In this document: one piece after another, positions 4,438 to 54,150 of the stretch
Numbering within the stretch: the first letter of the stretch is position 1
Layout: the number at the start of each line of letters is the position of its first letter
Assembly: GCA_031431875.1 (NCBI GenBank)
Contig: JANPEF010000082.1
Span: forward strand, 16,994 to 80,993
Direction: 5' to 3'
Source: Candidatus Eiseniibacteriota bacterium
GTDB lineage: Bacteria; Eisenbacteria; RBG-16-71-46; DASYSL01
Length of the DNA: 64,000 nt
The notes under the pieces: generated by a model
Database searches by the model: none
Seen by the model: only the letters and a program-made list of their open reading frames with translations
What the model was told of the DNA's origin: nothing
Translations under genes and position numbers: made by a program

Positions 4438-4504
4438 CTGACAGGCGGCGCATCCGGTGTTAACCTCGCGGCCTCGCCGACCCACGGCCACGGAGGATTC
4501 GACG

Positions 4505-5926
4505 ATGACCGATTTCCGCAGGACCACGGGGGGCACGGTCGCCCTCTCCACCGAACAACTCGACACGCTGCGCGCCTCGTTGCGCGGTCCACTCCTTCTC
4601 GCGGGCGATGACGGCTACGACGCGGCGCGTGCGGTGTGGAATGCCATGATTGACCGCCGGCCCGCGGCGATCCTCCGCGCGCACGGCGCCGGGGACGTCA
4701 TCCAGGCAGTGAACTTCGCCCGCACCCATGGTGTCCTGCTCGCGGTCAAGGGCGGCGGGCACAGCATCGCCGGCAAGGCGACGTGCGACGGCGGCCTCAT
4801 GCTCGACCTGTCCCTCATGCGCTCGGTGCGGGTCGAGCCGAAGAAGAAGCGGGCGCGTGTCGAGCCCGGCGCGCTGCTCTCCGACTTCGACCGCGAGACC
4901 CAGGCGTTCGGACTCTCGACCCCGACGGGCATCAACTCGACAACCGGGATGGCGGGTCTGACGCTGGGCGGCGGGTTCGGCTGGCAGAGTCGCAAGCGCG
5001 GCCTCACCATCGACAACCTGATCGGCGTCGACATCGTGCTCGCCTCGGGTGAGCTGGTCGAGGCGAACGCGAAGCAGAACCCCGACCTGTTCTGGGCCGT
5101 GCGCGGCGGCGGCGGCAACTTCGGCGTCGTCACCTCGTTCGAGTATCGCCTGCACAAGCACGGGCCCGGGGTGTATGCCGGGCTCATCGTCTACCCGTTC
5201 GACCAGGCGCCCGCGGTGTTCGAGGGCTACCGCAAGTTCACCGCCGAGGCGTCCGAGGACATGACCGCGTGGCTCGTGCTACGCAAGGCGCCGCCGCTGC
5301 CGTTCCTGCCGGCGAAGGTGCACGGGAAGGAAGTCGTGGTCGTCGCGTTCTGCTGGATCGGGGCGCCGCGCCGGGGCAAGTCGATGGCCGCCCCGCTGCG
5401 CAAGTTCGGCAAGCCCGTCGGCGAGATGCTCGCCGTCATGCCTTTCGCCGGCTGGCAGACCGCGTTCGATCCGCTGCTCGAGCCGGGCGCTCGCAATTAC
5501 TGGAAGTCGCACGACCTTCACAAGGTGACCGGCGACGTCGAGGGAATCCTGCTCGATGCCGTCGGCCGCCTGCCCACCGGCGAGTGCGAGGTGTTCGTCG
5601 GGCACCTGGGTGCTGCGGTCAATCGCGTGCCCATCGGCGACACGCCGTATCCGCATCGCGACATCGACTTCGTCGTCAACGTGCATACGCGCTGGCGCGA
5701 GGCGGCGGAGGACGCGGGCTGCATCGCCTGGGCGCGCGGGCTGTTCGACGCGCTCACCCCGCACGCGACCGGCGGCGTGTACGTCAATTTCATGCCCGAG
5801 GACGAAACGCAGCGCGTCGCGGTGGGAGCCTACGGCCCGAACTACGCGCGCCTCGTCTCGCTGAAGTCGAAGTACGACCCGCAGAACCTGTTCAGCCTCA
5901 ATCAGAACATCCAACCGAAGGGCTGA
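4505..5926 (+). CDS. FAD-binding oxidoreductase, berberine-bridge-enzyme / 6-hydroxy-D-nicotine oxidase-like
   Basis: KGGGHS flavin motif, GLTLGGGFG, RGGGGNFGVVT, C-terminal YVNF...KYDPQNLF; GGAGG upstream of ATG 4505. Confidence 0.9.
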   Translation: MTDFRRTTGGTVALSTEQLDTLRASLRGPLLLAGDDGYDAARAVWNAMIDRRPAAILRAHGAGDVIQAVNFARTHGVLLAVKGGGHSIAGKATCDGGLMLDLSLMRSVRVEPKKKRARVEPGALLSDFDRETQAFGLSTPTGINSTTGMAGLTLGGGFGWQSRKRGLTIDNLIGVDIVLASGELVEANAKQNPDLFWAVRGGGGNFGVVTSFEYRLHKHGPGVYAGLIVYPFDQAPAVFEGYRKFTAEASEDMTAWLVLRKAPPLPFLPAKVHGKEVVVVAFCWIGAPRRGKSMAAPLRKFGKPVGEMLAVMPFAGWQTAFDPLLEPGARNYWKSHDLHKVTGDVEGILLDAVGRLPTGECEVFVGHLGAAVNRVPIGDTPYPHRDIDFVVNVHTRWREAAEDAGCIAWARGLFDALTPHATGGVYVNFMPEDETQRVAVGAYGPNYARLVSLKSKYDPQNLFSLNQNIQPKG

Positions 5927-33785: not shown

Positions 33786-34673
33786 GTGACGGCCTTCGTC
33801 GCGGCGGCGCTGGCCGCGGTGGTGCTCGCGGGCGTCGGGGTGCCCGACGGCGCGGCGGCCCGGCGCACCCGCTCGCCGCGCCCGGCCTCCGGCGCGGACT
33901 CGAACACGATCGTCTACGTCGTCGATGAATCGACCAGCGCGGCGCATACGCTCGTGCACGAGATCCGTTCCAACTACGGCGGCGACGACAACTTCGCGGC
34001 CATGGACGGGATCCGCTACTACATCACCTACGTCATGCCCGGTCCCGAGGGCGCGCCGGTGCGCACCTGGACCGAGGCGCACTACATCTGGCTGCACGGC
34101 GCGCCGCGGGCGCGCATCGAGACCGTCGAGGACAGCACGGTCATCCTGGTCAACGGCGACACGACGCACGTGCGCCGTGCCGGCCGGTGGATCGACGATC
34201 CGGTCCCGGTCGCGGCCGCGCGCGAGCAGGCGCTCGACGCGATCTGGGCGGCGCGCCTGCCGCGCAACCTCAACCACCCCGGCATCCGCGCCCGCCAGCT
34301 TGCCGAGGCGCAGCGCGGCGTGCCGTTCACCACGCGCTACTTCTACGAGCATCCCGGACTCGACCGGCCCGAGGGCACCATCCTCGAGGTCACGTTCGCG
34401 CCGCCGGCATACACGCTGCAGCGGCTCTACACCTTCGATCCGCGCGCGAAGGCGTGGACGATCCTCGAACTCGCCGACGACAAGAGCCGCTACGACTGGA
34501 CGTGGGCCGAGCGGCGCACGTTGCGCGCCGCGAACGCCGCGGGCGAGCCCGGGCCGATCCTGTGGACGGCGCTGGTGCAGGACATGCAACTCGAGGGCCG
34601 CATGCCGGACCTCCTGCTGTCGCCGCCCGATGCCGGTGCCGGCGTGGTGAGCACCCCGTCGAAGGGACGCTGA
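33786..34673 (+). CDS. Exported hypothetical protein
   Basis: Signal-peptide-like N-terminus, coding-like codon pattern, tight spacing between kinase and regulator. Confidence 0.65.
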   Translation: MTAFVAAALAAVVLAGVGVPDGAAARRTRSPRPASGADSNTIVYVVDESTSAAHTLVHEIRSNYGGDDNFAAMDGIRYYITYVMPGPEGAPVRTWTEAHYIWLHGAPRARIETVEDSTVILVNGDTTHVRRAGRWIDDPVPVAAAREQALDAIWAARLPRNLNHPGIRARQLAEAQRGVPFTTRYFYEHPGLDRPEGTILEVTFAPPAYTLQRLYTFDPRAKAWTILELADDKSRYDWTWAERRTLRAANAAGEPGPILWTALVQDMQLEGRMPDLLLSPPDAGAGVVSTPSKGR

Positions 34674-34678
34674 ACGCG

Positions 34679-36256
34679 ATGGCCGACGAGACCAGGAAGC
34701 GTATCCTCTGGGCGGACGACGAGATCGACCTGCTGCGCCCTCATATCCTGTACCTCGAGGGGAAGGGCTACGTCGTCACGCCGGCGATGAACGGCGAGGA
34801 CGCGCTCGAGCGCGTGCAACGGGAGCCGTTCGATGTCGTGCTGCTCGACGAGATGATGCCGGGCATGGGCGGCCTCGCCACGCTGGCCGCGATCAAGGAG
34901 CACCAGCCGACGCTGCCCGTGATCCTCGTCACCAAGAGCGAGCAGGAAGAACTCATGAACGAGGCGCTCGGCCGGCGCATCACCGACTACCTGATCAAGC
35001 CCGTGAGCCCGAGCCAGATCTGGCTGGCGATCAAGAAGGTGTTCGAGACGCAGGCGCTGCAGCAGGACCGCTCGGCGCGCGACTACGTCGGTCACGCGCG
35101 CTGGATCGCCGAGCTCGACACCAAGCGCGTGGACGCGGCGGGCTGGCTCGACGTGAGCCGCCGCCTGACCGCGTGGGACCTGGCGCTCGAGCACCTGTCC
35201 GAGCCCGGACTCAAGCAGGCCCACGCCGACAGCCGCCGCGAGCTCAACCAGGAGTTCGGACGCTTCATCGAGGAGCAGTATCCGCGCTGGGTGAAGGCGC
35301 CTGCGGGCGAACGGCCCATGCTCTCGGTCGATATCATCGAGCGCAAGGTGGTGCCGCACCTCAAGGCCGGCAAGCGCGTCACCTTCATCGTCATGGATTG
35401 CCTGCGCTTCGACCAGTGGCTGGCGCTGGCCCCGCTGCTCGAGCCGTACTTCGACATGGTGACCGAGCCCTACTACGGGCTTCTGCCCACGGCCACGCCG
35501 TACGCGCGCAACGCGCTGTTCTCGGGTCTGTTCCCCGACGAGATGGGCAAGAAGCACCCCGAGTGGTGGAACGAGGACACCAAGGACGACCGCAGCAAGA
35601 ACCGCTTCGAACGCCAGTTCCTCGAGGCACAGCTGGCCCGCCTCAAGGCCACCCCCGAGAAACCGATCAAGTACGTGAAGATCTACACCATGGACGAGAG
35701 CCAGAACGTGCGTCGGCAGGTGAGCACCTACGGTTCCCTCGGCATGGCCGCGCTGGTGTTCAACTTCATCGACATCATGGCGCACGGCCGCAGCGAGTCG
35801 GACCTGCTGCAGGAACTGGCTCCCGACGAGATCGCGTTCCGCGCCGTGCTGCGCGCCTGGTTCGCCCACTCGCCGCTGTTCGACGTGATGAAGGCGCTGT
35901 CGCTGCAGGACAACGTGATCGTCCTGACCACGGACCACGGCGCGGTGATGGGCAAGCGCGCGGCGCTGGTCCACGGTAACCGCGAGACCTCGACCAACCT
36001 GCGCTACAAGTACGGCACCAACCTCACGGTCGACTCGCGCCAGGCGATCAACATCAAGGATCCGACCGCATGGCGCCTGCCGCCCGGCCACAACAAGAAC
36101 TACCTGCTGGCGCGCGAGGACTACTACTTCGTCTACCCGACCCGCTTCCACGAATACGAGAAGGCATTCTTCGGCACCTTCCAGCACGGCGGCGTCTCGA
36201 TCGAGGAGATGATCGTGCCGTGTGTCACGCTGACGCCGAAGGGGCGCGTGGGGTGA
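34679..36256 (+). CDS. PorX-like response regulator (receiver + PglZ/alkaline-phosphatase-fold domain)
   Basis: ILWADDEIDLL, LLDEMMPG; MDCLRFDQW, LPTATPYARNALFSG, DIMAH, TTDHG, FQHGG; followed by tsaE as for Bacteroidota porX. Confidence 0.9.
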   Translation: MADETRKRILWADDEIDLLRPHILYLEGKGYVVTPAMNGEDALERVQREPFDVVLLDEMMPGMGGLATLAAIKEHQPTLPVILVTKSEQEELMNEALGRRITDYLIKPVSPSQIWLAIKKVFETQALQQDRSARDYVGHARWIAELDTKRVDAAGWLDVSRRLTAWDLALEHLSEPGLKQAHADSRRELNQEFGRFIEEQYPRWVKAPAGERPMLSVDIIERKVVPHLKAGKRVTFIVMDCLRFDQWLALAPLLEPYFDMVTEPYYGLLPTATPYARNALFSGLFPDEMGKKHPEWWNEDTKDDRSKNRFERQFLEAQLARLKATPEKPIKYVKIYTMDESQNVRRQVSTYGSLGMAALVFNFIDIMAHGRSESDLLQELAPDEIAFRAVLRAWFAHSPLFDVMKALSLQDNVIVLTTDHGAVMGKRAALVHGNRETSTNLRYKYGTNLTVDSRQAINIKDPTAWRLPPGHNKNYLLAREDYYFVYPTRFHEYEKAFFGTFQHGGVSIEEMIVPCVTLTPKGRVG

Positions 36257-38889: not shown

Positions 38890-40208
38890 TCCCGCACGAC
38901 GCGTATCGCGCGGCGCTCGAGCGCCTGTACGGTCTCGAGCGCGGCAAGACCGGCTTCGGCCTGGCGGGCACGCGCGCGCTCGTCGAGGCACTCGGCCGCC
39001 CTGACCGTGCTTTCCGCTCCGTGCACCTGGCCGGCACCAACGGCAAGGGCTCGACCGCCGCGCTGATCGAGCGCGGCCTGCGCGCCGCCGGCGCCCGCAC
39101 CGGATTGTTCACCTCGCCCCATCTCGTCGACTTCCGCGAGCGCCTGCGCCTCGACGGCCGCCCCGCCGCGGCCGCCGACGTGGCGCGCGCGCTCGCCCGC
39201 GTCGAGGCCATTCCCGCGCCGCCGGGGCACCCGCGCACGTTCTTCGAGGCCACGTTCGGCCTCGGCTGCGCGCTGTTCGCCGACGCCCGGGTCGACTGGG
39301 GCGTGCTCGAGTGCGGGCTCGGCGGCCGGCTCGACGCGACCAACGTCGTCACGCCGGCGCTCGGCGTGATCACGCCGATCGGGCTCGACCACGCCGAAAT
39401 CCTGGGCGACACGCTCGAGGCGATCGCCGGCGAGAAGGCCGGCATCTTCAAGTCCGGCGTCCCGGTCGTGATCGCCGCACAGGCGCCGGCCGCCCATGCC
39501 GTGCTGGTCCGCATCGCGCAGGCCGTCGGCGCGCCGCTCGAGGCGGGGTCCGAACGCGCGCGGCTCGTCGCCGTCGACCGCATCGGCCCCGAGGGCAGCG
39601 ACGTGCGCTTCGACGTCGCGGGCTTCGGCGCGGTCGAAGCCCGGCTGGCACTGGTGGGCCGCCACCAGGTCGAGAACGCGCGCACTGCGCTGGCCGTGCT
39701 CTCGCTGCTGGCCGCGCGCGAGCCCGGGCTCGGGCTCGATGCCGCGTGCGCCCGCACCGCGCTGTCGAGCGTGCGCTGGCCCGGGCGCTTCGAGTCCTGC
39801 CCGGGCGAGCCGCGACTGTGGTGGGACGGGGCGCACAATCCCGATGGCGCGCGCGTCGTGCGCGCGGCGTGGCGCGAGGCGCTGGGCGATCCGCCGGGTA
39901 CGCTCGTGCTCGGGGTCTCGACCGACAAGGATCTCGACGCGATGCTCGGAGCGTTCGCCGGCCCGTGGCGGCGCGTGCACGCGGTCGCCGCCGAGAGTTC
40001 GCGCGCGGTGCCGCCGGAGGCGCTGGCCGCCGCGGTCGGTCGCGCCTGGCCCGGGATCGAGGCGACGGCGCACGCGTCGGTCGCCACGGGTGTCCAGGCC
40101 GCGCTCGAACGCGCGACGGGGGACGAACGAGTGCTCGTGGCCGGTTCGCTGTTCGTCGTCGGCGAAGCCATGAGCGCGATGGGCGCGGCGGAGGTGGCGT
40201 GCTCCTGA
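38886..40208 (+). CDS. folC: Folylpolyglutamate/dihydrofolate synthase
   Basis: HLAGTNGKGS, FTSPHL, TFFE, ECGLGGRLDATN, EKAGI, WPGRFE, DGAHN, GSLFVVG; start uncertain (CTG 38886 proposed). Confidence 0.92.
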   Translation: MIPHDAYRAALERLYGLERGKTGFGLAGTRALVEALGRPDRAFRSVHLAGTNGKGSTAALIERGLRAAGARTGLFTSPHLVDFRERLRLDGRPAAAADVARALARVEAIPAPPGHPRTFFEATFGLGCALFADARVDWGVLECGLGGRLDATNVVTPALGVITPIGLDHAEILGDTLEAIAGEKAGIFKSGVPVVIAAQAPAAHAVLVRIAQAVGAPLEAGSERARLVAVDRIGPEGSDVRFDVAGFGAVEARLALVGRHQVENARTALAVLSLLAAREPGLGLDAACARTALSSVRWPGRFESCPGEPRLWWDGAHNPDGARVVRAAWREALGDPPGTLVLGVSTDKDLDAMLGAFAGPWRRVHAVAAESSRAVPPEALAAAVGRAWPGIEATAHASVATGVQAALERATGDERVLVAGSLFVVGEAMSAMGAAEVACS

Positions 40209-43200
40209 GGCGAACCGTCGCGTTTGCGATCTCCGTGCTTCTTGCCGCGATCGCGGCCGTGGTTCCGGTCGAGGGGCAGGTGGCGCCCCCGGCTTCGGCT
40301 CCGGCTGCGCCCGCGCCCGTCGATTCCGCGCGCGCGATCGCGGACACAACCGCCGCCCTCCGCGATTCCGCCGCCGTTTCACGCGACACGACCCTCCCAC
40401 CCGCGACCGCGCCTCCGGTGCGGTCGATCATCACCCAACCCCGCCGCGGCAGCAGTCCGTACAACGTCGTCGCCGATCGCCTCGAGGGGGGACGCACCGC
40501 GCTCGAGGGCGAGGTGATCATGCTCATCGGCAACGTGACGCTGTCGCGCGACGGCACGGTGGTGAAGAGCCAGACCGGCCGCTACGTGAAGCGCGAGGGC
40601 ACCATTTACCTGACCGGCGGCGTCGACGCGGTCGACGGCGGGACCCGCGTCACGGCGCTGCAGGCCGCCTACAACGAGGCGACCGACTTCCTCACCCTCA
40701 TGGGGCAGGTCGTCGTGCGCGACAAGGACCTGGTGCTGGAGTCCGACCAGGGCTCGTACGACCAGTCGCGCGGCCGCGCCGAGCTGTGGAGCCGCGTGCG
40801 GGGGCGTGACAGGACGCGCACGCTCACCGCCGATCGCGTCACCTACCTGCGCGACGAGCAGGTGGCACAGGCGCGCGGGCGCGTCGTCGCCCGCGACTCG
40901 ACCGAGGGGCTCACGCTGACGGGCGAGGCCATCGACTACGACCGCCGGCGCGAGTTCGCGCTCGCCACCGCGCGGCCCACGCTGGTGCAGGCCGGGAAGA
41001 ACGGGAAGGGCGCGACGACGCTGGTCGGCGACACGATCACCGTCGCCACGCCCGAGCGCATCGCGACCGCCGCCGGGTCCGTGGTCATCACGCGCGACAG
41101 TCTGCGCGCCGAGGCCGGCCGCATGGTGTACTACGATCGCGAGGAGCGTGGCGTGCTGACCGGCGAGCCGCGCGCGTGGACCGACGAGGTCGACGTGCGC
41201 GGCGACTCGCTCGAGATCTTCACCCGCGACCAGGGAATCGACCGCCTGCTCGTCCTCGCCAACGGGCGCATCGAGTACCACGCCGACTCCGGCGCCGACG
41301 CCGGCGGCAGGAGCCTGCTCACCGCGCAACGCATGGACGTCTGGTTCGACGCCGCGGACGACGGCATCGACAGCCTCTACGCCACCGGCGAGGCGGCGAA
41401 CGAGTTCACGGGGAAGCCGCTGCCCGATCGCCTCTCCGAGTCGAACCGGACGACCGGCGACCTGGTGCGTCTCTACTTCGACGGGAAGGACCTGCAGGAG
41501 GCGATCGTCACCGGCAAGGCCGCGGGCACGTATCGCGCCGAGCTCGCCGCCAGCGACACCGCCGGCGCCCGCGCGAACGCCGTGGAGTACGAGGCCGACC
41601 GCATCGTCTTCGAGGTGCCGAAGAACCGCATCCGCCTCGAGCAGAATGCGGTGCTGCGCTACGAGCAGATCGCGCTGCGCGCCCCTGAGGTCCTGTTCGA
41701 CGTCAAGCAGCAGGTGCTCGAGGCCCGCGGCAACCCGCAGCTCGAGGACCGCGGCGACACGTTGCGAGGCACGTCGCTGGCCTACGACCTGGAGACCCGG
41801 CGCGGGACGGTGTTCGGCGCGCGCACGCGCTACCAGACCGGGTGGTACGCCGGGGACAAGATCCGCCGTCTCGGCGACGACGTAATCGACGTGGGCGGCG
41901 CGCGCTACTCCACCTGCAACCTCGACGACCCGCACTACGCGTTCCGCTCGGACCGGATGAAGATCTACCTCAAGGACAAGATCATCGCCCGGCCGGTGCT
42001 GTTCACGCTCAAGCACGTCCCGTTGCTGGCGCTCCCCTTCTACGTGTTCCCCATCCGTCAGGAGCGTACGTCGGGCCTGCTCGTGCCGCAGATCCAGTTC
42101 GGCTTCGGCGACGCGACCGGTGGGTATATCCGCAACGCCGGGTACTACTTCGCGCCGAACGACTACACCGACTTCACGGTCTCGGGCGACTGGTATCCGC
42201 AGGTGCCCTCGTGGGTGCTGCGTGGCGAGGCGCGTTACAAGTCGCTGTACAAGTTCGAGGGCCAGATGCAGGGGTCGATCGGGCGCTCGTTCTACACCAC
42301 GGAGGAGCGGAATTGGGACTTCCGCGCCCAGCACGCGCAGACGATCAACGACGCCACGTCGCTCACCGCGCGGGCCAACTTCACCTCGAGTGCGGACTAC
42401 ACGCGCGATCCGCTCACCGGCCTGCCGCTGGCGAACCGCATCGACCGCTTCCTCACCTCGAACCTGACGCTGTCGCACCGCCGGCCCTGGGCGTCGATCA
42501 ACCTGGTGCTGTCCCGCCAGGAGGATCTCGACACGAATCCGATCAGCTCGCCGCTGCCCAAGCTGCAGGAGCAACTGCCGTCGCTGTCGATCGTGCTGCC
42601 GTCGCGCACCCTGGGCCACAAGCCGGGGGCCACCGGCGGCGCGGGCTTCCTGCCGTTCCTGTCGACCACGTACCTGGGCTTCAATGCGCGCTTCCTCAAC
42701 GACCGCACCGTCTCGACGTTCCTGCGCCGCGACGAGTCGGGCGCGATCGCGGTGTTCGATACGTCGGTCGCCCGCCGCGCCTACCAGCACGTGGTGACGC
42801 TGAACGACAATCGCCGCCTCGGCTTCGTCAACTTCGGACCGACGTTCCGCTGGACCGAGGTCGTCTACCAATACGATGCGACAGGCAAATCGCCGTCGGC
42901 CGGCGGCACGTGGGCGGCGGGGGCGGGCGCCTCGATGACGCTGTACGGCACCTCGCACGGCGGGCTCGGTCCGATCACCTCGATTCGCCACGTGTTCCAG
43001 CCGATCTTCTCGTACTCGTTCCAGCCCCAATTCAGCCGCTTGCGCGTGCAGGTGCCGACCAGCGACACGACGTTCGCCACCGTCGACCGCTTCCCGCCGT
43101 TCGGCGGCATCGGGCTTTCGGGCACGCGACAGAGCTTCCTGTCGGTCAACCTGGTGAACCGCTTCGAGGCCAAGGTGCGGACCGAGAAGGGCGAGCGCGT

Positions 43201-43858
43201 GCTGTCGAACCTGCTCGGGATCGGCATCAACACCGCCTACGACTTCCTGCACGAGGCCAACGGCCGGGAGACGCCATGGCAGCCGATTCTGACCACGGTG
43301 CGCGTCCAGCCACCGAACTACATCAGCGGCGACCTGTCCCTGCGCCATGATCCCGCGGTGGACAAGCTGCTGCGCAACGCTTCGGCTTCGCTGTCGTTGC
43401 GCTTCGCCGGCGGGGGGCGTCCACCGGCGGTCGCCGAGATCCCGCTGGCCGGGAACGAGGCGCAGACTCGCGGCCCGCGCGACCAACTCGTGCCGTGGAG
43501 CCTGTCGACCTCGATCAGTTACGGGGGCAGCCGGAACGTCCTCGAGAACTGGCAGCACAGCGAGTCGGCCAACCTCGTGGCCGAGATCCAGCCCACCGCC
43601 AACTGGACGGTGCACTACTACAACCAGATCGATCTCAACGAGCGGCGGATCGTGGCCCAGGAGTGGTCGGTCACGCGCACGCTCCATTGCTGGCAGGCGC
43701 AATTCGTGCGGCGGTTCTCGGGGGGAACGGCCGATTACTACTTCAAGATCGGGATCCTCGACCGCCCCGAGATCTTCCTCGACCGCGGCACCGCCGGGCT
43801 GGGGACGATCGGCGGCCTGGGCTCGCTGGGTGGGATCGGGTCCTCGCTGGTGCCCTGA
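40199..43858 (+). CDS. LPS-assembly protein LptD-like with extended OstA/LptA-like N-terminal region (~1219 aa)
   Basis: Signal peptide; repeated jellyroll-like segments (ADRV, GDTI, GDSL, ADRI); YSTC..D.PHY, R.SGLLVP, GYYFAPNDY, terminal LHCW...YYFKIGI. Confidence 0.82.
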   Translation: MLLRRTVAFAISVLLAAIAAVVPVEGQVAPPASAPAAPAPVDSARAIADTTAALRDSAAVSRDTTLPPATAPPVRSIITQPRRGSSPYNVVADRLEGGRTALEGEVIMLIGNVTLSRDGTVVKSQTGRYVKREGTIYLTGGVDAVDGGTRVTALQAAYNEATDFLTLMGQVVVRDKDLVLESDQGSYDQSRGRAELWSRVRGRDRTRTLTADRVTYLRDEQVAQARGRVVARDSTEGLTLTGEAIDYDRRREFALATARPTLVQAGKNGKGATTLVGDTITVATPERIATAAGSVVITRDSLRAEAGRMVYYDREERGVLTGEPRAWTDEVDVRGDSLEIFTRDQGIDRLLVLANGRIEYHADSGADAGGRSLLTAQRMDVWFDAADDGIDSLYATGEAANEFTGKPLPDRLSESNRTTGDLVRLYFDGKDLQEAIVTGKAAGTYRAELAASDTAGARANAVEYEADRIVFEVPKNRIRLEQNAVLRYEQIALRAPEVLFDVKQQVLEARGNPQLEDRGDTLRGTSLAYDLETRRGTVFGARTRYQTGWYAGDKIRRLGDDVIDVGGARYSTCNLDDPHYAFRSDRMKIYLKDKIIARPVLFTLKHVPLLALPFYVFPIRQERTSGLLVPQIQFGFGDATGGYIRNAGYYFAPNDYTDFTVSGDWYPQVPSWVLRGEARYKSLYKFEGQMQGSIGRSFYTTEERNWDFRAQHAQTINDATSLTARANFTSSADYTRDPLTGLPLANRIDRFLTSNLTLSHRRPWASINLVLSRQEDLDTNPISSPLPKLQEQLPSLSIVLPSRTLGHKPGATGGAGFLPFLSTTYLGFNARFLNDRTVSTFLRRDESGAIAVFDTSVARRAYQHVVTLNDNRRLGFVNFGPTFRWTEVVYQYDATGKSPSAGGTWAAGAGASMTLYGTSHGGLGPITSIRHVFQPIFSYSFQPQFSRLRVQVPTSDTTFATVDRFPPFGGIGLSGTRQSFLSVNLVNRFEAKVRTEKGERVLSNLLGIGINTAYDFLHEANGRETPWQPILTTVRVQPPNYISGDLSLRHDPAVDKLLRNASASLSLRFAGGGRPPAVAEIPLAGNEAQTRGPRDQLVPWSLSTSISYGGSRNVLENWQHSESANLVAEIQPTANWTVHYYNQIDLNERRIVAQEWSVTRTLHCWQAQFVRRFSGGTADYYFKIGILDRPEIFLDRGTAGLGTIGGLGSLGGIGSSLVP

Positions 43859-43931
43859 GCCGACCGCCGAGGCCTCCCGTCCGCAAGTTGCAAAGCCTTG
43901 CCCGCGCGCCGCTTGGGGCGGGGGGTGCCGC

Positions 43932-43961
43932 TTGACCGGGGATTTCCCCGGCCCGTACACT
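43932..43961 (+). promoter_or_regulatory. Sigma70-type promoter TTGACC-N18-TACACT for the selenoprotein gene
   Basis: -35 at 43932-43937, -10 at 43956-43961, AGGAGG RBS at 44003-44008. Confidence 0.65.
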
Positions 43962-44014
43962 CGATCCATTCGCCGTACCCGCCGGGGGGTCCCCCGGCTC
44001 ACAGGAGGAACTTC

Positions 44015-45367
44015 ATGTCTGTTTCGACGCTGCGCTCGCGGGCGCTCCTGCTCGTGTTCGTGTCCCTCGTCGTCCTTGGCTGGACGGCGTCGGGCGCGCG
44101 CACGCAAGGGAAGCTGACGGGCAAGGTGCTTCCGGTCATCAGCACGTCTGATGTGATCGGTTACACCGCGCCCTGCGGCTGACACACGCCCAAGGGTGGG
44201 CTGGCCCGGCGGGCCAGTTTGATCGACAGCACGAGGATCAAGTTCGGCGATGCGGTCGTCGTCGACGCAGGCGACTGGGCTCCGGACTTCACCAAGCCCA
44301 ACGAGGCTCCCAAGCTCCAGTTCCTGCTCGAGATGGCGAACCTCATGAACTACGACGCCCTCGGTGTGGGCGAGCGGGAGCTTGCGTTCGGCCTGCCGAC
44401 GATCCTCGAGTTGGCCGCGAAGTCGAAGTCGCCGTTGATTTCGTCGAACCTGATCGACAAGAAGACGGGCAAGCCCGTGTTCAAGACGTCGGTCATCGTC
44501 AAGAAGGGCGGCATCAAGGTCGGCATCTTCGCGGTCCTCGGACCGAAGATCGATCTGCCGGGCAACTCCGGCGAGCTGGTCACGGTCGATGATCCGATCG
44601 CGACCGCGCAGGCCATGGTCGCCGAGTTGCGCAAGCAGGTCGACGTCATCGTCTGCCTCGCGCACCTGGGCCGCGTCGAAGGCGAGGATCTCGCCGCGCA
44701 GGTGCCGGGGATGGATGTCGTGATTCTCGCGCACCACCCGGGCTTCGTCGCCCAGGGCCGGCGCGTCAACGCGGCGATCACGGTCGCCAGCGGTGAGCAG
44801 GGCCAGAACGTCGGCTTCACGCAGGTGACGCTCGAAGGCAAGAAGGTGATGGACCTCACCTCGGAGACGAAGATCCTGATGCCCGAGATTGGCGACCGCG
44901 GCGACATCGCGCGGATGGTCAAGGAGTTCGACGACAAGCTGAACGAGGAACAGCGCAAGGCGCAGCAGACGCAGACGCTGCAGAACTCGTCGACGGCGCC
45001 CGGGTCGGATCAGTACCTGGGCAGCGAGAATTGCATGAGCTGCCACCCGGCGCAGTACGAGCAGTGGAAGACGACGCAGCACGCGCACGCCTTCGCCACG
45101 CTCGAGCGGACGCAGAAGGATGCGACGCCCGAGTGCGTCCAGTGCCACGTGGTCGGCTTTGGCCGGCCGGGCGGGTACGAGAACGCGTCGAAGTCGGCGA
45201 AGCTCAAGAACGTCGGTTGCGAGTCGTGCCATGGCTACGGCACGCAGCACGACATGTTCGCGAAGACCGGCGGCAAGGTGGCCGAAGCCGTCTGCCTGAC
45301 CTGCCACACCCCGGCGAACGACGCGGGCTGGAACTACGCGGCGAAGTTGCCGCGCGTCTCGCACTAG
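44015..45367 (+). CDS. Probable selenoprotein (Sec56, CxU): signal peptide + UshA/5'-nucleotidase-like domain + tetraheme cytochrome c (c554-like), 450 aa
   Basis: ORFs 43898-44182 and 44219-45367 share a frame and are separated only by TGA 44180-44182 in TAPCG*HTPKGGLARR; strong RBS; SECIS-like hairpin; CMSCH, CVQCH, CESCH, CLTCH. Confidence 0.85.
44198..44220 (+). promoter_or_regulatory. Candidate bacterial SECIS element
   Basis: GGGCTGGCCC-GGC-GGGCCAGTTT: 7 Watson-Crick plus 3 G-U pairs; G-initial loop starts 25 nt after the UGA. Confidence 0.7.
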
Positions 45368-45508
45368 GCGGCGGCGGGGGGCCGGGAGCGGCCCAGGGAA
45401 GGTAGCGTGCGACGCGGGCGCGGTGGTACCCTTGGCGGGTACCGCGCGCCCGCGCGGCGTTACGCCGCGGGACCCGCCTCCCCCGACTCCCTCACGCCGG
45501 AAGCGCAC

Positions 45509-46897
45509 ATGCCCCTGCAGCCCGATGGAATGACCTATTTCGAGGACATCATCCAGTCGGTCGGCAACACGCCGCTCGTCCGCCTGAACAAGATGACCAA
45601 GGGCCTCCAGGCCACCGTCCTCGCCAAGGTCGAATCGTTCAATCCCGGCGGCAGCTCGAAGGACCGGATCGGTCTCTCCATGATCCGCGCCGCCGAGGCC
45701 GACGGGAAGCTCAAGCCCGGCGGCACGATCGTCGAGTGCACCTCGGGGAACACGGGCGTCGGCCTGGCCATGGCGGCGGTCGTGCTGGGCTACAAGACCG
45801 TGTTCTGCATGCCGGACAAGGTGGCGACCGAGAAGATCAACCTCCTCAAGGCCTACGGCGCCGAGGTGGTCGTCTGCCCCACCGCAGTCTCGCCCGACTC
45901 GCCCGAGTCGTACTACCAGGTCGCTCGCCGCATCGAACGCGAGCGGCCGAATGCGTTCCTCACCAACCAGTACGACAATCCGGCGAACCCGGCGGCGCAC
46001 TACCGGACGACGGGCCCCGAACTGTGGGAGCAGACCGCGGGCAAGATCGACGTGTTCGTCACCTCGATCGGCACCGGTGGCACGATCAGCGGCACCGCGA
46101 AGTACCTGAAGGAGAAGAACCCGAAGGTCCGCATCGTCGGCGCCGACCCGATCGGCTCGATCCTCCACCAGTGGTTCCACACCCGCACCATGGGCGAGGC
46201 GCACACGTACAAGGTCGAGGGCATCGGCGAGGACTTCCTGCCCGAGGCCTACGACTGGAGCGTGATCGACGACGTCGTGCAGGTGAACGACAAGGACTCG
46301 CTGAACACGGCGCGCCGCCTCGCCCGCGAGGAGGGCATCCTGGTCGGCGGCTCGTGCGGCACCGCGCTGCACGCCGGGCTGCTCGAGGCGAAGAAGATGA
46401 AGCAGGGCGGCGTGATCGTCGTCATGCTGCCCGACACCGGCGAGCGCTACCTGTCGAAGGTGCACAGCGACGAGTGGATGCGCGACAACCACATGCTCGA
46501 TCCGGCCGAGACGCGTGTCGCCGACCTCGTCTTCGGCAAGTCGGCCGGCGGGAAGGCACTGCTGTCGGTCGCGCCGGGCGACCTCGTGCGGAAGGCGCTC
46601 GACCTCGTCCGCGCCTACGACGTGTCGCAGCTCCCGGTCCTCGAGGGCGAGGCTTCCGTCGGCACCGTGTACGACGCGGAGATCATGAAGCGCGTGCTCG
46701 ACGACCCGACGGTACTCGGCCGCACGGTGCGCGAGATCATGGACCCGCCGCTGCCGGTGATCGGCGCGCAGGAACCAGTGACGCGCGTGGCGCAACTCCT
46801 CAAGCAGAAGCACGCGGCGGTGCTCGTCTCCGCCAACGGGGGAGGACCCAGCGGAATCCTCACCCGTCTCGATGTCATCTCGCTGATCGCGGAGTGA
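45509..46897 (+). CDS. Cystathionine beta-synthase with C-terminal CBS domains
   Basis: VGNTPLV, NPGGSSKDRI (PLP Lys), TSGNTG, GTGGT, EGIG, PDTGERYLSK, CBS pair (YDVSQLPV); start 45509 or 45530. Confidence 0.92.
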   Translation: MPLQPDGMTYFEDIIQSVGNTPLVRLNKMTKGLQATVLAKVESFNPGGSSKDRIGLSMIRAAEADGKLKPGGTIVECTSGNTGVGLAMAAVVLGYKTVFCMPDKVATEKINLLKAYGAEVVVCPTAVSPDSPESYYQVARRIERERPNAFLTNQYDNPANPAAHYRTTGPELWEQTAGKIDVFVTSIGTGGTISGTAKYLKEKNPKVRIVGADPIGSILHQWFHTRTMGEAHTYKVEGIGEDFLPEAYDWSVIDDVVQVNDKDSLNTARRLAREEGILVGGSCGTALHAGLLEAKKMKQGGVIVVMLPDTGERYLSKVHSDEWMRDNHMLDPAETRVADLVFGKSAGGKALLSVAPGDLVRKALDLVRAYDVSQLPVLEGEASVGTVYDAEIMKRVLDDPTVLGRTVREIMDPPLPVIGAQEPVTRVAQLLKQKHAAVLVSANGGGPSGILTRLDVISLIAE

Positions 46898-46899
46898 GC

Positions 46900-48093
46900 A
46901 TGGTGCGCATCGACGCGAAATCCGGCCTCGGCACCCGCGCGATCCACGCGGGCAACGCCCCCGACCCGCGCACGGGCGCGGTCGCGGTGCCGGTGTACCA
47001 GACCTCGACCTACGCGCAGGACGGATTCGGCAAGCACAAGGGCTACGAATACGCGCGCTCGCAGAACCCCACGCGCGAGGCGCTCGAGGAGAACCTGGCG
47101 TCGCTCGAGAGCGGCGCGCACGGCTTCGCCTTCGCCTCGGGCCTCGCCGCGACGACGACCCTGCTGCACCTGCTCAAGGCCGGGGACCACGTCGTGGCCT
47201 CGAACAACATGTATGGGGGCACGTTCCGCCTGTTCGACCAGGTGTTCGCCCACCTCGGCATGCGCTTCTCCTACGTGAACACGGCCGACCTGGCCGCGGT
47301 CGAGGCGGCGATCGAGCCGGCGACGAAGCTCATCTACATCGAGACGCCGACCAATCCGTTGCTCACCATCACGGACCTCGCGGGCATCGCGGCGATCGCC
47401 CAGCGGCACGAACTGCTCACCGCGTGCGACAACACGTTCGCCACGCCGATGCTGCAGCGGCCGATCGAGTTCGGCTTCGACATCGTGCTCCACTCGACGA
47501 CCAAGTACCTGAACGGGCACAGCGACATGGTCGGCGGCGCACTGGTCGTCAAGCGCGACGACCTGGCGACCCGCCTGCGCTTCCTGCAGAACGCGGTGGG
47601 GGCGGTGCCCGGTCCGTGGGACTGCTGGCTCGCGCTGCGCGGCATCAAGACGCTGCCCCTGCGCATGGAGCGCCACGAGAAGAATGCCGGCGACCTCGCC
47701 GTGTGGCTCGCCGGCCAGGCGACGGGACCGCGCGGGCCGAAGGTGATCTATCCCGGCCTGCCCGATCATCCCGGGCATGCGCTGGCCAGGAAGCAGATGG
47801 CGGGGTTCGGCGGGATCATCTCGCTCGAGGTCCCCGATCTCGAGACCGGCCAGCGATTCTGCGAGGCGCTCACCCTGTTCACGCTCGGCGAATCGCTCGG
47901 CGGCGTCGAGTCGCTGGTGACGCATCCGGCGAGCATGACGCACGCCTCGGTGCCCAGGGCTCAGCGCGAGGCCACGGGCTTCACCGATGGCCTGGTCCGG
48001 CTCTCGGTCGGCTGCGAGGACGTTGACGACCTGCGGGCGGACCTGGAACGCGGGCTGGCGGCCTCCTCGGCAGCCGTGGCGGCGGCTCGCTAA
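46900..48093 (+). CDS. Cystathionine gamma-lyase/gamma-synthase (Cys/Met metabolism PLP enzyme)
   Basis: YEYARSQNPTR, FASGLAA, ETPTNP, DNTFATP, HSTTKYLNGHSD, ESLGGVESL, RLSVG. Confidence 0.93.
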   Translation: MVRIDAKSGLGTRAIHAGNAPDPRTGAVAVPVYQTSTYAQDGFGKHKGYEYARSQNPTREALEENLASLESGAHGFAFASGLAATTTLLHLLKAGDHVVASNNMYGGTFRLFDQVFAHLGMRFSYVNTADLAAVEAAIEPATKLIYIETPTNPLLTITDLAGIAAIAQRHELLTACDNTFATPMLQRPIEFGFDIVLHSTTKYLNGHSDMVGGALVVKRDDLATRLRFLQNAVGAVPGPWDCWLALRGIKTLPLRMERHEKNAGDLAVWLAGQATGPRGPKVIYPGLPDHPGHALARKQMAGFGGIISLEVPDLETGQRFCEALTLFTLGESLGGVESLVTHPASMTHASVPRAQREATGFTDGLVRLSVGCEDVDDLRADLERGLAASSAAVAAAR

Positions 48094-51810: not shown

Positions 51811-54150
51811 ATGCCGCTTGCCCTCTGGGGCGCCACGCTGTGCGTTTCGCTCGGCGCCCTGATCATCCTGCTCGGCATCGCGATCTTTCGCGAGGACCCG
51901 CGCCAGCGGCCCAACCGCTGGGCCGCGCTCATGCTGTCGTTCGGCGGCCTGGGCGCACTCCTCGTCGGACTCGCGTTGGCCGCCGAGGGCTCGCAGGCGA
52001 AGGGCGCGGTCGTCACCACCGACGCGGTCCACTACTTCTCGTACCTGTGGGAGTTTTTCTTCCCCGCGCTGCTCCTCTTCGTGCTGGTGTTCCCGCGCGA
52101 ACCGCGCTGGTTCCGCCGCGTGCCGTTCTTCGAGATCCTCGTCTTCACGCCCTACCTCTTCCACCTGCTGCTCACCGCCGCGGCGCGCCTGTCCAACGAA
52201 ACGTTCTGGATTGCGGACGTCGCCTCGCGCAGCGGCTGGGCCTCGCCGCTCCTGTCGACCATGCGCGTCGCGTTGGGCCTGCTCTACGACGCGCACACGG
52301 TCCTGTTCTCGCTGGTCAACCTGGCGTACGTCGTGGTCACGCTTCTCGTCCTGGGCGTGCGCCTGCGCGAGGTGACGAGCCCGCGCTTGCGCGACCAGCT
52401 GCGCGCCATCTCGATCGGGCTGGGCGCCTGTCTCGTCCTCTACTCGCTCGCGGTGCCGCTGCCCACGCTGTTCGGCGTCGGCGCGCGGGCGGGCCAGGCG
52501 TTCCGCTCGGGGCTGCTGGTCTTGGCGCTGACCGTCGGCTCGGGCTCGATCGCCTACGCGATCGTGCGTTACCGCTTCCTCGACGCCGGCTTCCTGGTCC
52601 GCCGCTCGATCCTGTTCCTGCTGCCGGCGCTGGGAATGATTCTCGTCTACCTGGGCCTGTCGTCGATGATCACCAGCTTCCTCGGCCGCTGGTCGGGTCT
52701 CGATCCCCGGCTGGCGCAGCCGCTGTTGTTGCTGCTGCTGGTCAGCGTGCTGCCGCCGGTCGTCTCGCGCCTCGAGGAGGTGGCCGAGGGCTACCTGTCG
52801 CGCGACCGGCGCGAGGGCCGCACCGTCATCCAGAACCTGTCGCGGGACATCGTCACCGAGCTCGACCTGTCGGCGCTGGCCGGGCGCCTGACCAGCGCGG
52901 TGGGCGAGACGCTGCTGCTCGAGCGCTGCGTGCTGTTCCGCCGCGAGGGCGAGGGCTTCGTCACCGTGGCCGCGTTCGATCGGCCCGGCGGCGTGCGCGT
53001 CGGCGAGGCGCTGAGCGGCGAGCTGGGCCTGGTCGCCTGGGCCCACGCGCTGCGCGCCGAGATGCTGGGCCCCGGCCCCACGCTGGCGAGCCAGATCACC
53101 GACGGCTGGCCCTCCGAGCGCGCCGAAGAAGCGGCCCGCATCGTCGGCGCGGCCAGGACGCTCGACATCACGCTGCTCGTGCCCGTGCGCCATCGCGACG
53201 AGGTGCTCGGCGCGATCGCGCTCGGGCGCAAGCTGACCGGCGCACGGTTCCTGCGCGAGGATTTGTTTCTCCTTGAGACTCTCGCAAACCAGACGGGAGC
53301 CGCGATGCGTACCGCATCGCTTTATAGCGAGAGCCTGCGCCGCGCCGCGCTCGAGGAGGAGCTGTCACTGGCCCGCCAGATCCAGCGCGGCTACCTGCCG
53401 CGCGCGTTTCCGCGCTGGGACAACCTCGAGATCTTCGGCATGAACCAGTCGTCGAAGCAAGTGGGCGGCGATTACTTCGACCTGATGGACACCGACGACG
53501 GCGTGCTCTGTGCGATCGCCGACGTCTCGGGCAAGGGCGTGCCCGGCGCGCTGGTCATGAGCATGATCCAGGCGTCGTTGCGGACCCAGGCCGGCGAGGG
53601 CCGCGCCGTGTCGGACATCCTCGAGCGCGTCAACCGCCTTCTCCTGTCGCGCGCCGAGTCGGGCATGTTCGCCACCGGCTTCCTGGCCAAGCTCGATCGC
53701 GCGACGATGGAGCTGCGCTACTGCAACGCGGGCCACAACCCGCCTTTCCTGCAGCGTGCCGACGGCCGCATCGAGATCCTGCACATGGGTGGCCTCCTGC
53801 TCGGCGTGTTCGAGGATCCGCGGCTCGAGGAGGGCATGGTCACGCTCGAGCCCGGCGATCGCGTGCTGTGCTACACCGACGGCGTGACCGAGGCGCGCTC
53901 GCCGGACGGCGAGTTCTTCGACGAGGAGCGCCTGAGTGACCTGATGCGCGCGCTGCCGCGCGACCACTCCGCCGAGGAGGTCGCCCGCGCCATCCACGAC
54001 GCGGTCTACGCGTTCTCGCAGAGCGAGGACCTCGAGGACGACATGACGCTGGTCGTCCTGCGCGTGCCGGCCCACGCCGCCGTCGCCATCGACGTCGATG
54101 CGGCGGCAAGCCTCGCCGAGCCGGCGCTTACGCCCGGCGACGGCGCCTGA
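51811..54150 (+). CDS. Membrane-bound RsbU/SpoIIE-family PP2C phosphatase with GAF domain
   Basis: Multi-TM N-terminus, GAF (F..ED..LL..LA.Q), ARQIQ, VGGDYFD, IADVSGKG, NAGH, YTDG, DDMT. Confidence 0.92.
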   Translation: MPLALWGATLCVSLGALIILLGIAIFREDPRQRPNRWAALMLSFGGLGALLVGLALAAEGSQAKGAVVTTDAVHYFSYLWEFFFPALLLFVLVFPREPRWFRRVPFFEILVFTPYLFHLLLTAAARLSNETFWIADVASRSGWASPLLSTMRVALGLLYDAHTVLFSLVNLAYVVVTLLVLGVRLREVTSPRLRDQLRAISIGLGACLVLYSLAVPLPTLFGVGARAGQAFRSGLLVLALTVGSGSIAYAIVRYRFLDAGFLVRRSILFLLPALGMILVYLGLSSMITSFLGRWSGLDPRLAQPLLLLLLVSVLPPVVSRLEEVAEGYLSRDRREGRTVIQNLSRDIVTELDLSALAGRLTSAVGETLLLERCVLFRREGEGFVTVAAFDRPGGVRVGEALSGELGLVAWAHALRAEMLGPGPTLASQITDGWPSERAEEAARIVGAARTLDITLLVPVRHRDEVLGAIALGRKLTGARFLREDLFLLETLANQTGAAMRTASLYSESLRRAALEEELSLARQIQRGYLPRAFPRWDNLEIFGMNQSSKQVGGDYFDLMDTDDGVLCAIADVSGKGVPGALVMSMIQASLRTQAGEGRAVSDILERVNRLLLSRAESGMFATGFLAKLDRATMELRYCNAGHNPPFLQRADGRIEILHMGGLLLGVFEDPRLEEGMVTLEPGDRVLCYTDGVTEARSPDGEFFDEERLSDLMRALPRDHSAEEVARAIHDAVYAFSQSEDLEDDMTLVVLRVPAHAAVAIDVDAAASLAEPALTPGDGA

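Follow-up and report, generated by a model that had tools for sequence, protein, structure and literature searches.

An interrupted reading frame encoding a predicted selenoprotein

The window analysed here is a stretch of 64,000 nucleotides (nt) of DNA from a Candidatus Eiseniibacteriota bacterium. Positions 44015..45367 of its forward (+) strand form a single frame of 450 codons, running from an ATG (44015-44017) to a TAG (45365-45367) and containing one in-frame TGA, at 44180-44182. The start codon is preceded, after a 6-nt spacer, by the Shine-Dalgarno sequence AGGAGG (44003..44008, + strand), and all these elements, to which a first-pass annotation of this DNA had pointed, can be read directly from the window sequence. 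Translating the TGA as selenocysteine (Sec, U), the sole codon at which the translation departs from genetic code table 11, yields 450 residues, in which the peptide ...STSDVIGYTAPCGUHTPKGGLARRASLID... carries the motif P53-C54-G55-U56. The first-pass annotation had proposed a hidden, exported C-x-U selenoprotein in which an UshA-like domain is fused to a tetraheme cytochrome, and this proposal is supported by the homologues, by the Sec genes of the genome and by an independent assembly.

The full coding sequence (44015..45367, +; 450 codons plus TAG) would specify an UshA-like PCGU tetraheme cytochrome, the parts of which follow one another on the + strand. Residues 1-28 (44015..44098; MSVSTLRSRALLLVFVSLVVLGWTASGA) hold two Arg, a hydrophobic stretch and T-A-S-G-A, and were judged by eye to be signal-peptide-like; AlphaFold2 gives a helix at residues 6-25. 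An UshA/5'-nucleotidase-like N-domain with degenerate metal-ligand motifs spans residues ~39-290 (44129..44884) and contains the Cys54-Gly55-Sec56 triplet (44174..44182), of which the TGA is the Sec codon. A long linker helix (residues 296-325, 44900..44989, from the AlphaFold2 secondary structure) leads to a cytochrome c554-like tetraheme domain (residues 336-450, 45020..45364; PF13435, and positions 399-518 of the NF041198 profile). The heme motifs of this domain, all invariant in the family, are CMSCH (residues 340-344, 45032..45046), CVQCH (374-378, 45134..45148), CESCH (402-406, 45218..45232) and CLTCH (427-431, 45293..45307). Translation thus bears out the joined 450-residue protein proposed at first pass, with its CxxCH motifs at ~340, 374, 402 and 427, and the WxxxxHA segment noted there is WKTTQHA, at residues 351-357.

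Under table 11 the frame is split into a 55-residue stub from ATG 44015 and a 382-residue open reading frame (ORF) from TTG 44219. As had been anticipated for standard annotation, public gene calls hold the 382-residue form (P0002, 100% identity, 85% of the query covered), and most close homologues in these calls are 380-382-residue truncations as well. We consider it very likely, judging from the sequence, that 44015..45367 is a real, intact single gene for an exported protein with one Sec and four hemes, both export and heme attachment being predicted. This amounts to an annotation fix: a signal-less 382-residue mis-call, here and in most close relatives, gives way here to one selenoprotein of 450 residues.

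The UGA alternates with cysteine codons in a genome that encodes the Sec machinery

Relatives were sought in one genome per species, and at least 436 were confirmed among 600 listed stretches; locus counts given below cover the window and 80 kept related loci from many phyla (n = 81). All 17 full-length homologues (448-485 residues) carried Cys at the TGA column, within an invariant P53-C54-G55-C56. At the codon level, 40 copies have TGA at this column and 41 have TGC or TGT, and the residue is Cys or Sec in 57/57 aligned family sequences; this is the PCGC or PCGU pattern that the first-pass annotation had proposed to look for in homologues. Among the listed N-terminal matches from the window's phylum, most hold exactly one TGA.

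The genome to which the window belongs (3.75 Mb, 98.45% complete) encodes a tRNA-Sec with anticodon TCA (68 bits, cut-off 47), as well as selA (527 bits), selB (335 bits) and selD (374 bits), all above their family cut-offs. The selA, selB, selC and selD genes, which had been named as a check on the Sec reading, are therefore all present, and the cytochrome c maturation genes named with them are represented by three Cytochrom_C_asm matches.

Public sequencing runs were compared throughout as assembled contigs. One contig, X5, comes from a different study and shows 0 differences to the window over 44093-44324, TGA included; in this form it supplies the confirmation that had been suggested from reads. 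A second contig (X6), ~97% identical, covers the whole stretch, and a third (X9), of 1,415 nt and from an RNA library in which DNA carry-over is possible, covers 44089-45500. L020, a genome with 95% identity over this gene, has the TGA as well. On the combined evidence it is very unlikely that the locus is a pseudogene, contains a sequencing error or consists of two genes.

The segment 44171-44220, which holds the P-C-G-U codons and the hairpin described below, was the sole match of many diverged contigs in four metagenome or metatranscriptome runs, where it appeared as a depth spike. It is a nucleotide-level conserved island common to diverged genes of the family.

A hairpin specific to the Sec forms follows the UGA

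A hairpin resembling a selenocysteine insertion sequence (SECIS) lies at 44199..44219 (+), 25 nt after the UGA. It has 9 bp and a GGC loop (44208-44210), its core reads CUGGCCC-GGC-GGGCCAG, and counting G-U pairs lengthens it to 11 pairs (44197-44221). In the Sec forms of the family the hairpin stands 25-28 nt after the UGA. Scored in a fixed register, the median stem length was 7 bp among the Sec forms (n = 41) and 1 bp among the Cys forms (n = 37; Mann-Whitney p = 2e-7, a nominal value since the sequences are related); these sets differ slightly from the 40 Sec and 41 Cys forms of the codon count. In a 30-nt alignment of the Sec forms 82.0% of the cells were paired, against 71.6% in shuffles, and the covariation score was 0.335 against 0.183, with 0/500 shuffles reaching either value, while registers slid along the same alignment were 31-52% paired. 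The Cys forms were paired in 51.7% of cells as compared to 52.0% in shuffles, 315/500 of which reached the observed value. Compensatory silent changes are visible among the Sec forms (CUG...CAG, CUC...GAG, CUA...UAG, GCA C...G UGU). Judging from these alignments, the hairpin is specific to the Sec forms and covaries, as a SECIS element would.

The gene belongs to a large family, NF041198

The read-through product matched the NCBIfam model NF041198 ('UshA_like_PCGU, UshA-like (seleno)protein') at 290 bits (cut-off 275, E = 3e-86). Residues 1-320 alone match profile positions 24-283, and residues 321-450 alone match positions 399-518 of 519, at 116.6 bits. Since the model matches both halves separately, the multiheme tail belongs to the definition of the family, and by these profile matches the fusion of UshA-like and tetraheme modules is its normal, curated architecture. 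Indeed, 71/76 family genes extracted from the related loci have exactly four CxxCH motifs, the remainder being three heme-less paralogues with no CxxCH and two genes with three. Pfam detects the heme part only (PF13435 Cytochrome_C554, residues 340-407, E = 8e-18, 65.6 bits against a cut-off of 20.8).

The first-pass annotation was correct that genome mining had already revealed UshA-like CxU proteins. A GOS survey of 2008 described a 'COG0737, UshA-like, CxU' family of 76 Sec and 92 Cys sequences, and counted the UshA-like proteins as one of three major families without a redox motif of the thiol-oxidoreductase type, most known selenoproteins being homologues of thiol oxidoreductases (PMC2398784). 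A 2022 review lists the family under COG0737 (PMC9312934) and a 2026 review lists it as NF041198 (PMC13188914), the latter being the only paper that a full-text search for 'NF041198' returned. The window gene is therefore an ordinary member of a selenoprotein family catalogued since 2008. What is new here is that the family is without an invariant metal ligand throughout, that it is near-universal in two phyla, and that its genes adjoin those for LptD or for DsbA-like CGHC proteins.

The family is large, with the at least 436 relatives among the listed stretches mentioned above, and near-universal in both of these phyla. At E <= 1e-20 it occurs in 80/81 genomes of the window's phylum (79/80 without the unpublished genome G083), and in a second phylum, around genome G004, 56 of the 61 genomes gave a strong match.

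Paralogues were seen in some relatives. In L020, a heme-less Cys-form paralogue (4451-5638) lies directly downstream of the UshA-like gene, and tandem pairs of family genes also occur in L030 and L035. No second family paralogue was found in the window's own genome. This genome does hold a 1257-residue open frame (G000:C28:31135-33795; L101, L102) in which two stretches share 27-29% identity with the UshA-like N-domain, and which from its sequence may be a tandem-domain phosphoesterase-like protein.

A 5'-nucleotidase fold with an invariant C-G-C/U loop and four hemes

The AlphaFold2 model, built on a 57-sequence alignment (mean pLDDT 85.9, pTM 0.82), has an alpha/beta domain to ~residue 290, followed by the long helix (296-325) and by a heme domain that is helical. 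The best Foldseek matches in the PDB are 5'-nucleotidases, led by 2z1a (E = 2e-21) and followed by CD73 and UshA, over ~300 columns. When the family consensus was aligned to 2z1a in a PDB profile search, D-x-H was replaced by D-x-K/I and GNHE by GERE, the window protein having D-V-I and GERE at these positions. In the alignment to 2z1a, motif I and the GG-x-AR helix are connected by a loop that holds the C-G-C/U triplet. Over the 57 sequences, which come from many phyla, the only invariant residues of the N-domain are C54, G55, C/U56, G61 and G86, and no metal ligand is invariant.

PF00149 and PF02872 (the 5'-nucleotidase C-terminal domain) gave no match at E <= 0.1 in the product, and its scores against nucleotidase equivalogs were 50-60 bits, with cut-offs of 486-883. 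A phosphoesterase is very unlikely, because there is neither an invariant metal ligand nor a 5'-nucleotidase C-terminal domain. It had been noted at first pass that the downstream ORF alone lacks a signal peptide and the first metallophosphoesterase motif. The former holds for the 382-residue ORF, but the motifs are degenerate throughout the family and were not lost by truncation.

The invariant residues of the heme domain over the same 57 sequences are all four CxxCH motifs, H356, H412, N399, V400, E403 and G407, and H450 is conserved in at least 90%. Only three conserved His are thus available as candidate distal ligands of the four hemes, and one heme may lack a sixth ligand or receive it from elsewhere; in cytochrome c554, heme 2 is five-coordinate. 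The signal-like N-terminus (judged by eye), the four CxxCH motifs and the maturation genes in the genome together point to a c-type cytochrome.

Genomic context of the family

In the window, the gene directly upstream is lptD (39311-43858), an open frame with LptD_2, LptD_N and OstA-like domains and 6 Cys. Between its end and the UshA-like gene lies a candidate sigma-70-like promoter (43932..43961, +; TTGACC, 18 nt, TACACT), a consensus match only, with 1 site found as compared to 0.1 expected in shuffles. Just 3' of the stop codon stands a long GC-rich hairpin (45402..45464, +), possibly a U-less terminator or insulator; the segment 45365-45475 folds at -74.6 kcal/mol (z = -3.1, 0/200 shuffles as good), and the terminator scan did not call the hairpin because it has no T tract. 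With its own promoter-like site in front and this very stable hairpin behind, the UshA-like gene looks monocistronic. The hairpin overlaps GTG 45407 of the next ORF, and the true start of that gene is therefore probably further downstream. That ORF is a PALP and CBS-domain gene (45407-46897), followed by a pyridoxal-phosphate enzyme of Cys/Met metabolism (~46900-48093). The two, of the cystathionine beta-synthase and gamma-lyase types, look like a reverse-transsulfuration pair, and none of the 80 related loci had neighbours that clustered with them.

Neighbours of the family gene follow lineage across the 81 loci, and no conserved metabolic operon was found around it. LptD is encoded upstream in 18/81 loci, the window included, and HU in 15/81, often in between; the LptD-linked loci belong to metagenome-assembled genomes of the FCB group labelled Eisenbacteria, Krumholzibacteriota or Fibrobacteraceae. 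In E. coli, the assembly of LptD depends on disulfides. A DUF1573 gene stands upstream in 11/81 loci, mostly with Planctomycetota and Fimbriimonadaceae labels, and in Acidobacteriota-labelled loci the family gene is flanked by Maf and DciA.

Eleven of the 81 loci, labelled Nitrospinota, Nitrospirota or Thermodesulfobacteriota and all with Cys forms, have a DsbA-like gene directly downstream. Its product has ~207-211 residues and a signal peptide; the motif is CGHC in 7 cases and CGSC in 2, with single cases of CHTC and of CYSC. In the 9 pairs for which both gene ends were available, the DsbA-like gene starts 14-133 nt after the UshA-like stop. A thioredoxin-fold domain is also found appended after the hemes, in L063 (993 residues), L080 (967 residues) and the database protein P0124 (1012 residues). 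These fused domains carry a monothiol C-P-Y/F-G and are borderline for PF01323 (25.6 and 23.9 bits in L063 and L080, respectively; cut-off 25.6) and for PF13462 (21.0 and 23.3 bits; cut-off 23.2). A search for longer fused forms gave only 6 proteins at E <= 1e-10, among them one thioredoxin-fold fusion and three ordinary phosphoesterases.

Several further observations concern redox genes near the family. A 717-residue protein (L098, 4822-6972) combines an AhpC/TSA (redoxin) domain with a multiheme region of the c554 type that shares 49% identity with the heme domain of the window protein, a further example of this heme module joined to a thiol-redox domain. In one genus of the window's phylum (G078, G142:C48) a MauE/DoxX gene lies ~1.7 kb from the UshA-like selenoprotein gene, and in G078 (L107, G078:C10:58016-61396) a rhodanese-domain gene lies beside it. 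Elsewhere in the window, 34187-36256 encodes a response-regulator receiver fused to a PglZ domain, and 51811-54150 a protein with GAF and SpoIIE (PP2C phosphatase) domains.

Known DsbA oxidants in genomes that carry the family

No DsbA, DsbB or VKOR is Pfam-detectable in the window's genome, and its only MauE match is sub-threshold (21.5 bits, cut-off 27). Nine of the 11 genomes with a DsbA-like pair have neither DsbB nor VKOR, the completeness of those genomes not being given. Among the 81 genomes of the window's phylum, DsbB is found in 0, VKOR in 8 and MauE above its cut-off in 40; among the 61 genomes of the G004 phylum, DsbB and VKOR are found in 1 each, both in G027, and MauE in 26. G027 is one of the 5 genomes of that phylum without a strong family match. 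By our tally, the family is present while DsbB, VKOR and MauE all stay below cut-off in 40/81 and 31/61 genomes, the former being every genome of the window's phylum that is without these oxidants; the remaining genomes with the family have a known oxidant as well. No statistical association can be claimed from these counts, because related genomes are not independent and the presence of the family hardly varies in either phylum.

A simple one-for-one replacement of DsbB by the family is ruled out, as MauE, above cut-off in 40/81 and 26/61 genomes, coexists with it. According to a 2026 preprint, MauE can itself replace DsbB through a CXC active site, 20.1% of the species in the dataset lack DsbB, VKOR and MauE, and further pathways remain undiscovered (10.64898/2026.03.05.709764). 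A paper search found no literature joining DsbA, DsbB, VKOR and multiheme cytochromes.

Proposed function and its alternatives

We propose, with considerable confidence, that the locus holds an intact NF041198 selenoprotein gene whose UGA is read as Sec, and that its product is a predicted thiol/selenol:cytochrome c oxidoreductase and not a phosphoesterase. The UGA at 44180 would be read by the SelB/tRNA-Sec system of the genome, aided by the hairpin 25 nt downstream. The mature protein would consist of a domain with the 5'-nucleotidase fold, its dinuclear metal site lost, which carries the Cys54-Gly55-Sec56 loop and is joined by the long helix to a c554-like domain with four, presumably covalently bound, hemes. 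In this scheme the Cys/Sec pair would cycle between selenol/thiol and selenenylsulfide, and would exchange its two electrons singly with the heme chain, linking it to the periplasmic cytochrome pool. Such a protein would act as a periplasmic thiol/selenol:cytochrome c oxidoreductase rather than as a phosphoesterase.

A number of observations weigh against parts of this proposal. The hairpin taken alone is unexceptional in GC-rich DNA (z = -1.4, 18/200 shuffles as good), the wider stretch around it folds at z = -0.6, and Rfam yielded no SECIS family for 43900-45500, its only two matches being sub-threshold and due to chance; since the single-sequence fold is not significant, we relied on the comparison of Sec and Cys forms. 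In 6/41 Sec forms there are 0 pairs in the fixed register, and in some the hairpin is shifted upstream. The hairpin also overlaps the conserved G-G-L-A-R-R-A codons, so that its conservation is partly derived from the protein, and the Cys forms, which have the same peptide, therefore serve as the control. As for the N-domain, the window protein keeps several former ligand positions (D46, D84, D87, H217 and H240/241), and this member may still bind some metal. The redox cycle, the spacing between the Cys/Sec pair and the heme closest to it and the attachment of the hemes are inferred, and the passages on this family in PMC2398784, PMC9312934 and PMC13188914 gave no biochemical data on its members.

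The adjacency of family genes to those for LptD or DsbA-like proteins suggests a heme-wired redox role for periplasmic thiols and selenols. The DsbA-like CGHC pairing, the rare thioredoxin-fold fusions, the lptD synteny and the frequent absence of known DsbA oxidants lead us to a testable idea, namely that disulfide or selenenylsulfide chemistry is wired to hemes in the cell envelope. This reading, from envelope thiols or selenols to hemes, is the best lead on the function of the family.

Were electrons to flow towards the hemes, the protein would be a periplasmic thiol oxidase independent of DsbB and VKOR, its C-G-U/C taking electrons from a DsbA-like partner or from envelope proteins and passing them on; we hold this to be possible, though doubtful. 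The DsbA-like genes directly downstream in 11/81 loci, the thioredoxin-fold domains appended in L063, L080 and P0124 and the LptD genes upstream in 18/81 loci (the window's among them) argue for it, as do the window's genome, with no Pfam-detectable DsbA, DsbB or VKOR and a sub-threshold MauE, and the 40/81 and 31/61 genomes that have the family and none of DsbB, VKOR or MauE. MauE, whose active site is also CXC, offers a parallel, and further pathways are expected according to the preprint (10.64898/2026.03.05.709764). However, roughly half of the genomes in each phylum have MauE alongside the family, 8/81 have VKOR alongside it, and the complementary case, G027, with DsbB and VKOR and no strong family match, is a single genome. 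The window's genome also has no Pfam-detectable DsbA to be oxidised, the fused domains carry a monothiol C-P-Y/F-G in place of CxxC and score at or just under the DSBA cut-off, and the 11 DsbA-linked loci are all Cys forms from other phyla. Lineages without DsbB, moreover, may just make few structural disulfides. The data thus allow a heme-wired thiol-oxidase role and do not require it.

In its fullest form this proposal would make the family a missing route of oxidative folding, which oxidises DsbA-like partners or LptD-type envelope proteins, sends the electrons through the four hemes to the cytochrome pool, and works without DsbB, VKOR, MauE or quinone. We rate this as rather unlikely. If true, one of the largest orphan families of selenoproteins would gain a function, and the proposal would help to explain the 20.1% of species without DsbB, VKOR and MauE (10.64898/2026.03.05.709764).

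In the opposite direction, the hemes would feed respiratory electrons to the C-G-U centre, which would reduce a periplasmic oxidant such as a peroxide, sulfoxide, disulfide, polysulfide, or selenium or arsenic oxyanion. We hold this reductase role, too, to be possible, though doubtful. Sec is placed at the only invariant motif of the N-domain, and most known selenoproteins are, as the 2008 survey states, homologues of thiol oxidoreductases (PMC2398784); the peroxiredoxin-type AhpC/TSA domain is fused to a similar c554-like module in L098, and a rhodanese gene adjoins the family gene in G078. Substrate-specific neighbours, however, do not recur across the 81 loci, and a niche respiratory substrate accounts less well than a core role in the envelope for a family that is near-universal in two phyla.

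Far less probable is a SoxB-like hydrolase or oxidase of sulfur compounds whose own hemes would receive the electrons of thiosulfate or sulfane sulfur. The product does match the SoxB model TIGR04486 (E = 6e-21), SoxB structures match at 1e-11, and genes of the cystathionine beta-synthase and gamma-lyase types lie downstream in the window. But the TIGR04486 score is 74.3 bits against a cut-off of 550, the similarity is that of the common 5'-nucleotidase fold, sox genes do not recur among the neighbours in the 81 loci, and the two downstream genes do not cluster with any of the 80 related loci.

A working metallophosphoesterase, whether a 5'-nucleotidase or a 2',3'-cyclic-nucleotide phosphodiesterase, is highly improbable. 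JGI names many of the homologues '2',3'-cyclic-nucleotide 2'-phosphodiesterase (5'-nucleotidase family)', the fold and sequence resemble those of 5'-nucleotidases, and the window protein keeps D46, D84, D87 and some of the His; against this stand the want of any family-invariant metal ligand, GERE for GNHE and D-x-I for D-x-H, the missing PF00149 and PF02872 matches and equivalog scores of 50-60 bits against cut-offs of 486-883.

That the TGA is a true stop, in a nonsense pseudogene, through a sequencing error or ahead of a separate 382-residue protein from TTG 44219, is close to refuted: gene callers do yield the 382-residue form and the single-sequence hairpin is not significant, but the TGA is kept in an independent assembly and in the 95%-identical L020, it alternates only with Cys codons across 81 copies, conservation runs on across it, the hairpin is specific to Sec forms, a full set of Sec genes is present, and the 382-residue form is without the signal peptide needed for heme attachment.

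Comparison with known systems

The predicted oxidoreductase of the window shares with NF041198 the P-C-G-U motif, the 5'-nucleotidase-like N-domain, the C-terminal four-heme region and the alternation of Sec and Cys. It is, however, ~70 residues shorter than the 519-position model, profile positions ~284-398 being largely unmatched.

With the 5'-nucleotidases, including 2z1a, CD73 and E. coli UshA (1ush), it has in common the N-terminal metallophosphoesterase fold and the GG-x-AR helix after motif I. Unlike them, it has degenerate metal motifs and places a C-G-U loop between motif I and that helix, and it has no C-terminal nucleotide-binding domain, the tetraheme domain standing in the place of the substrate domain. 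The heme module itself resembles cytochrome c554 (Nitrosomonas CycA, 1bvb/1ft5), with a PF13435 match at 8e-18, a 1bvb match at 2e-15 and four CxxCH in both. Its score against NF043010, in contrast, is 55.9 bits as compared to a cut-off of 400, and the module is built into a larger enzyme rather than acting as a free electron carrier.

The relay from Mia40, which has a CPC motif, through Erv1 to cytochrome c offers an analogy for thiol oxidation coupled to a cytochrome, and CXC peptides act as mimics of PDI. MauE, DsbB and VKOR are likewise similar by analogy only, with no relation in sequence or fold to the window protein, although the active site of MauE is a CXC (10.64898/2026.03.05.709764). 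These three are membrane oxidants, whereas the window protein is predicted to be soluble or anchored in the periplasm, and would pass its electrons to hemes rather than to quinone.

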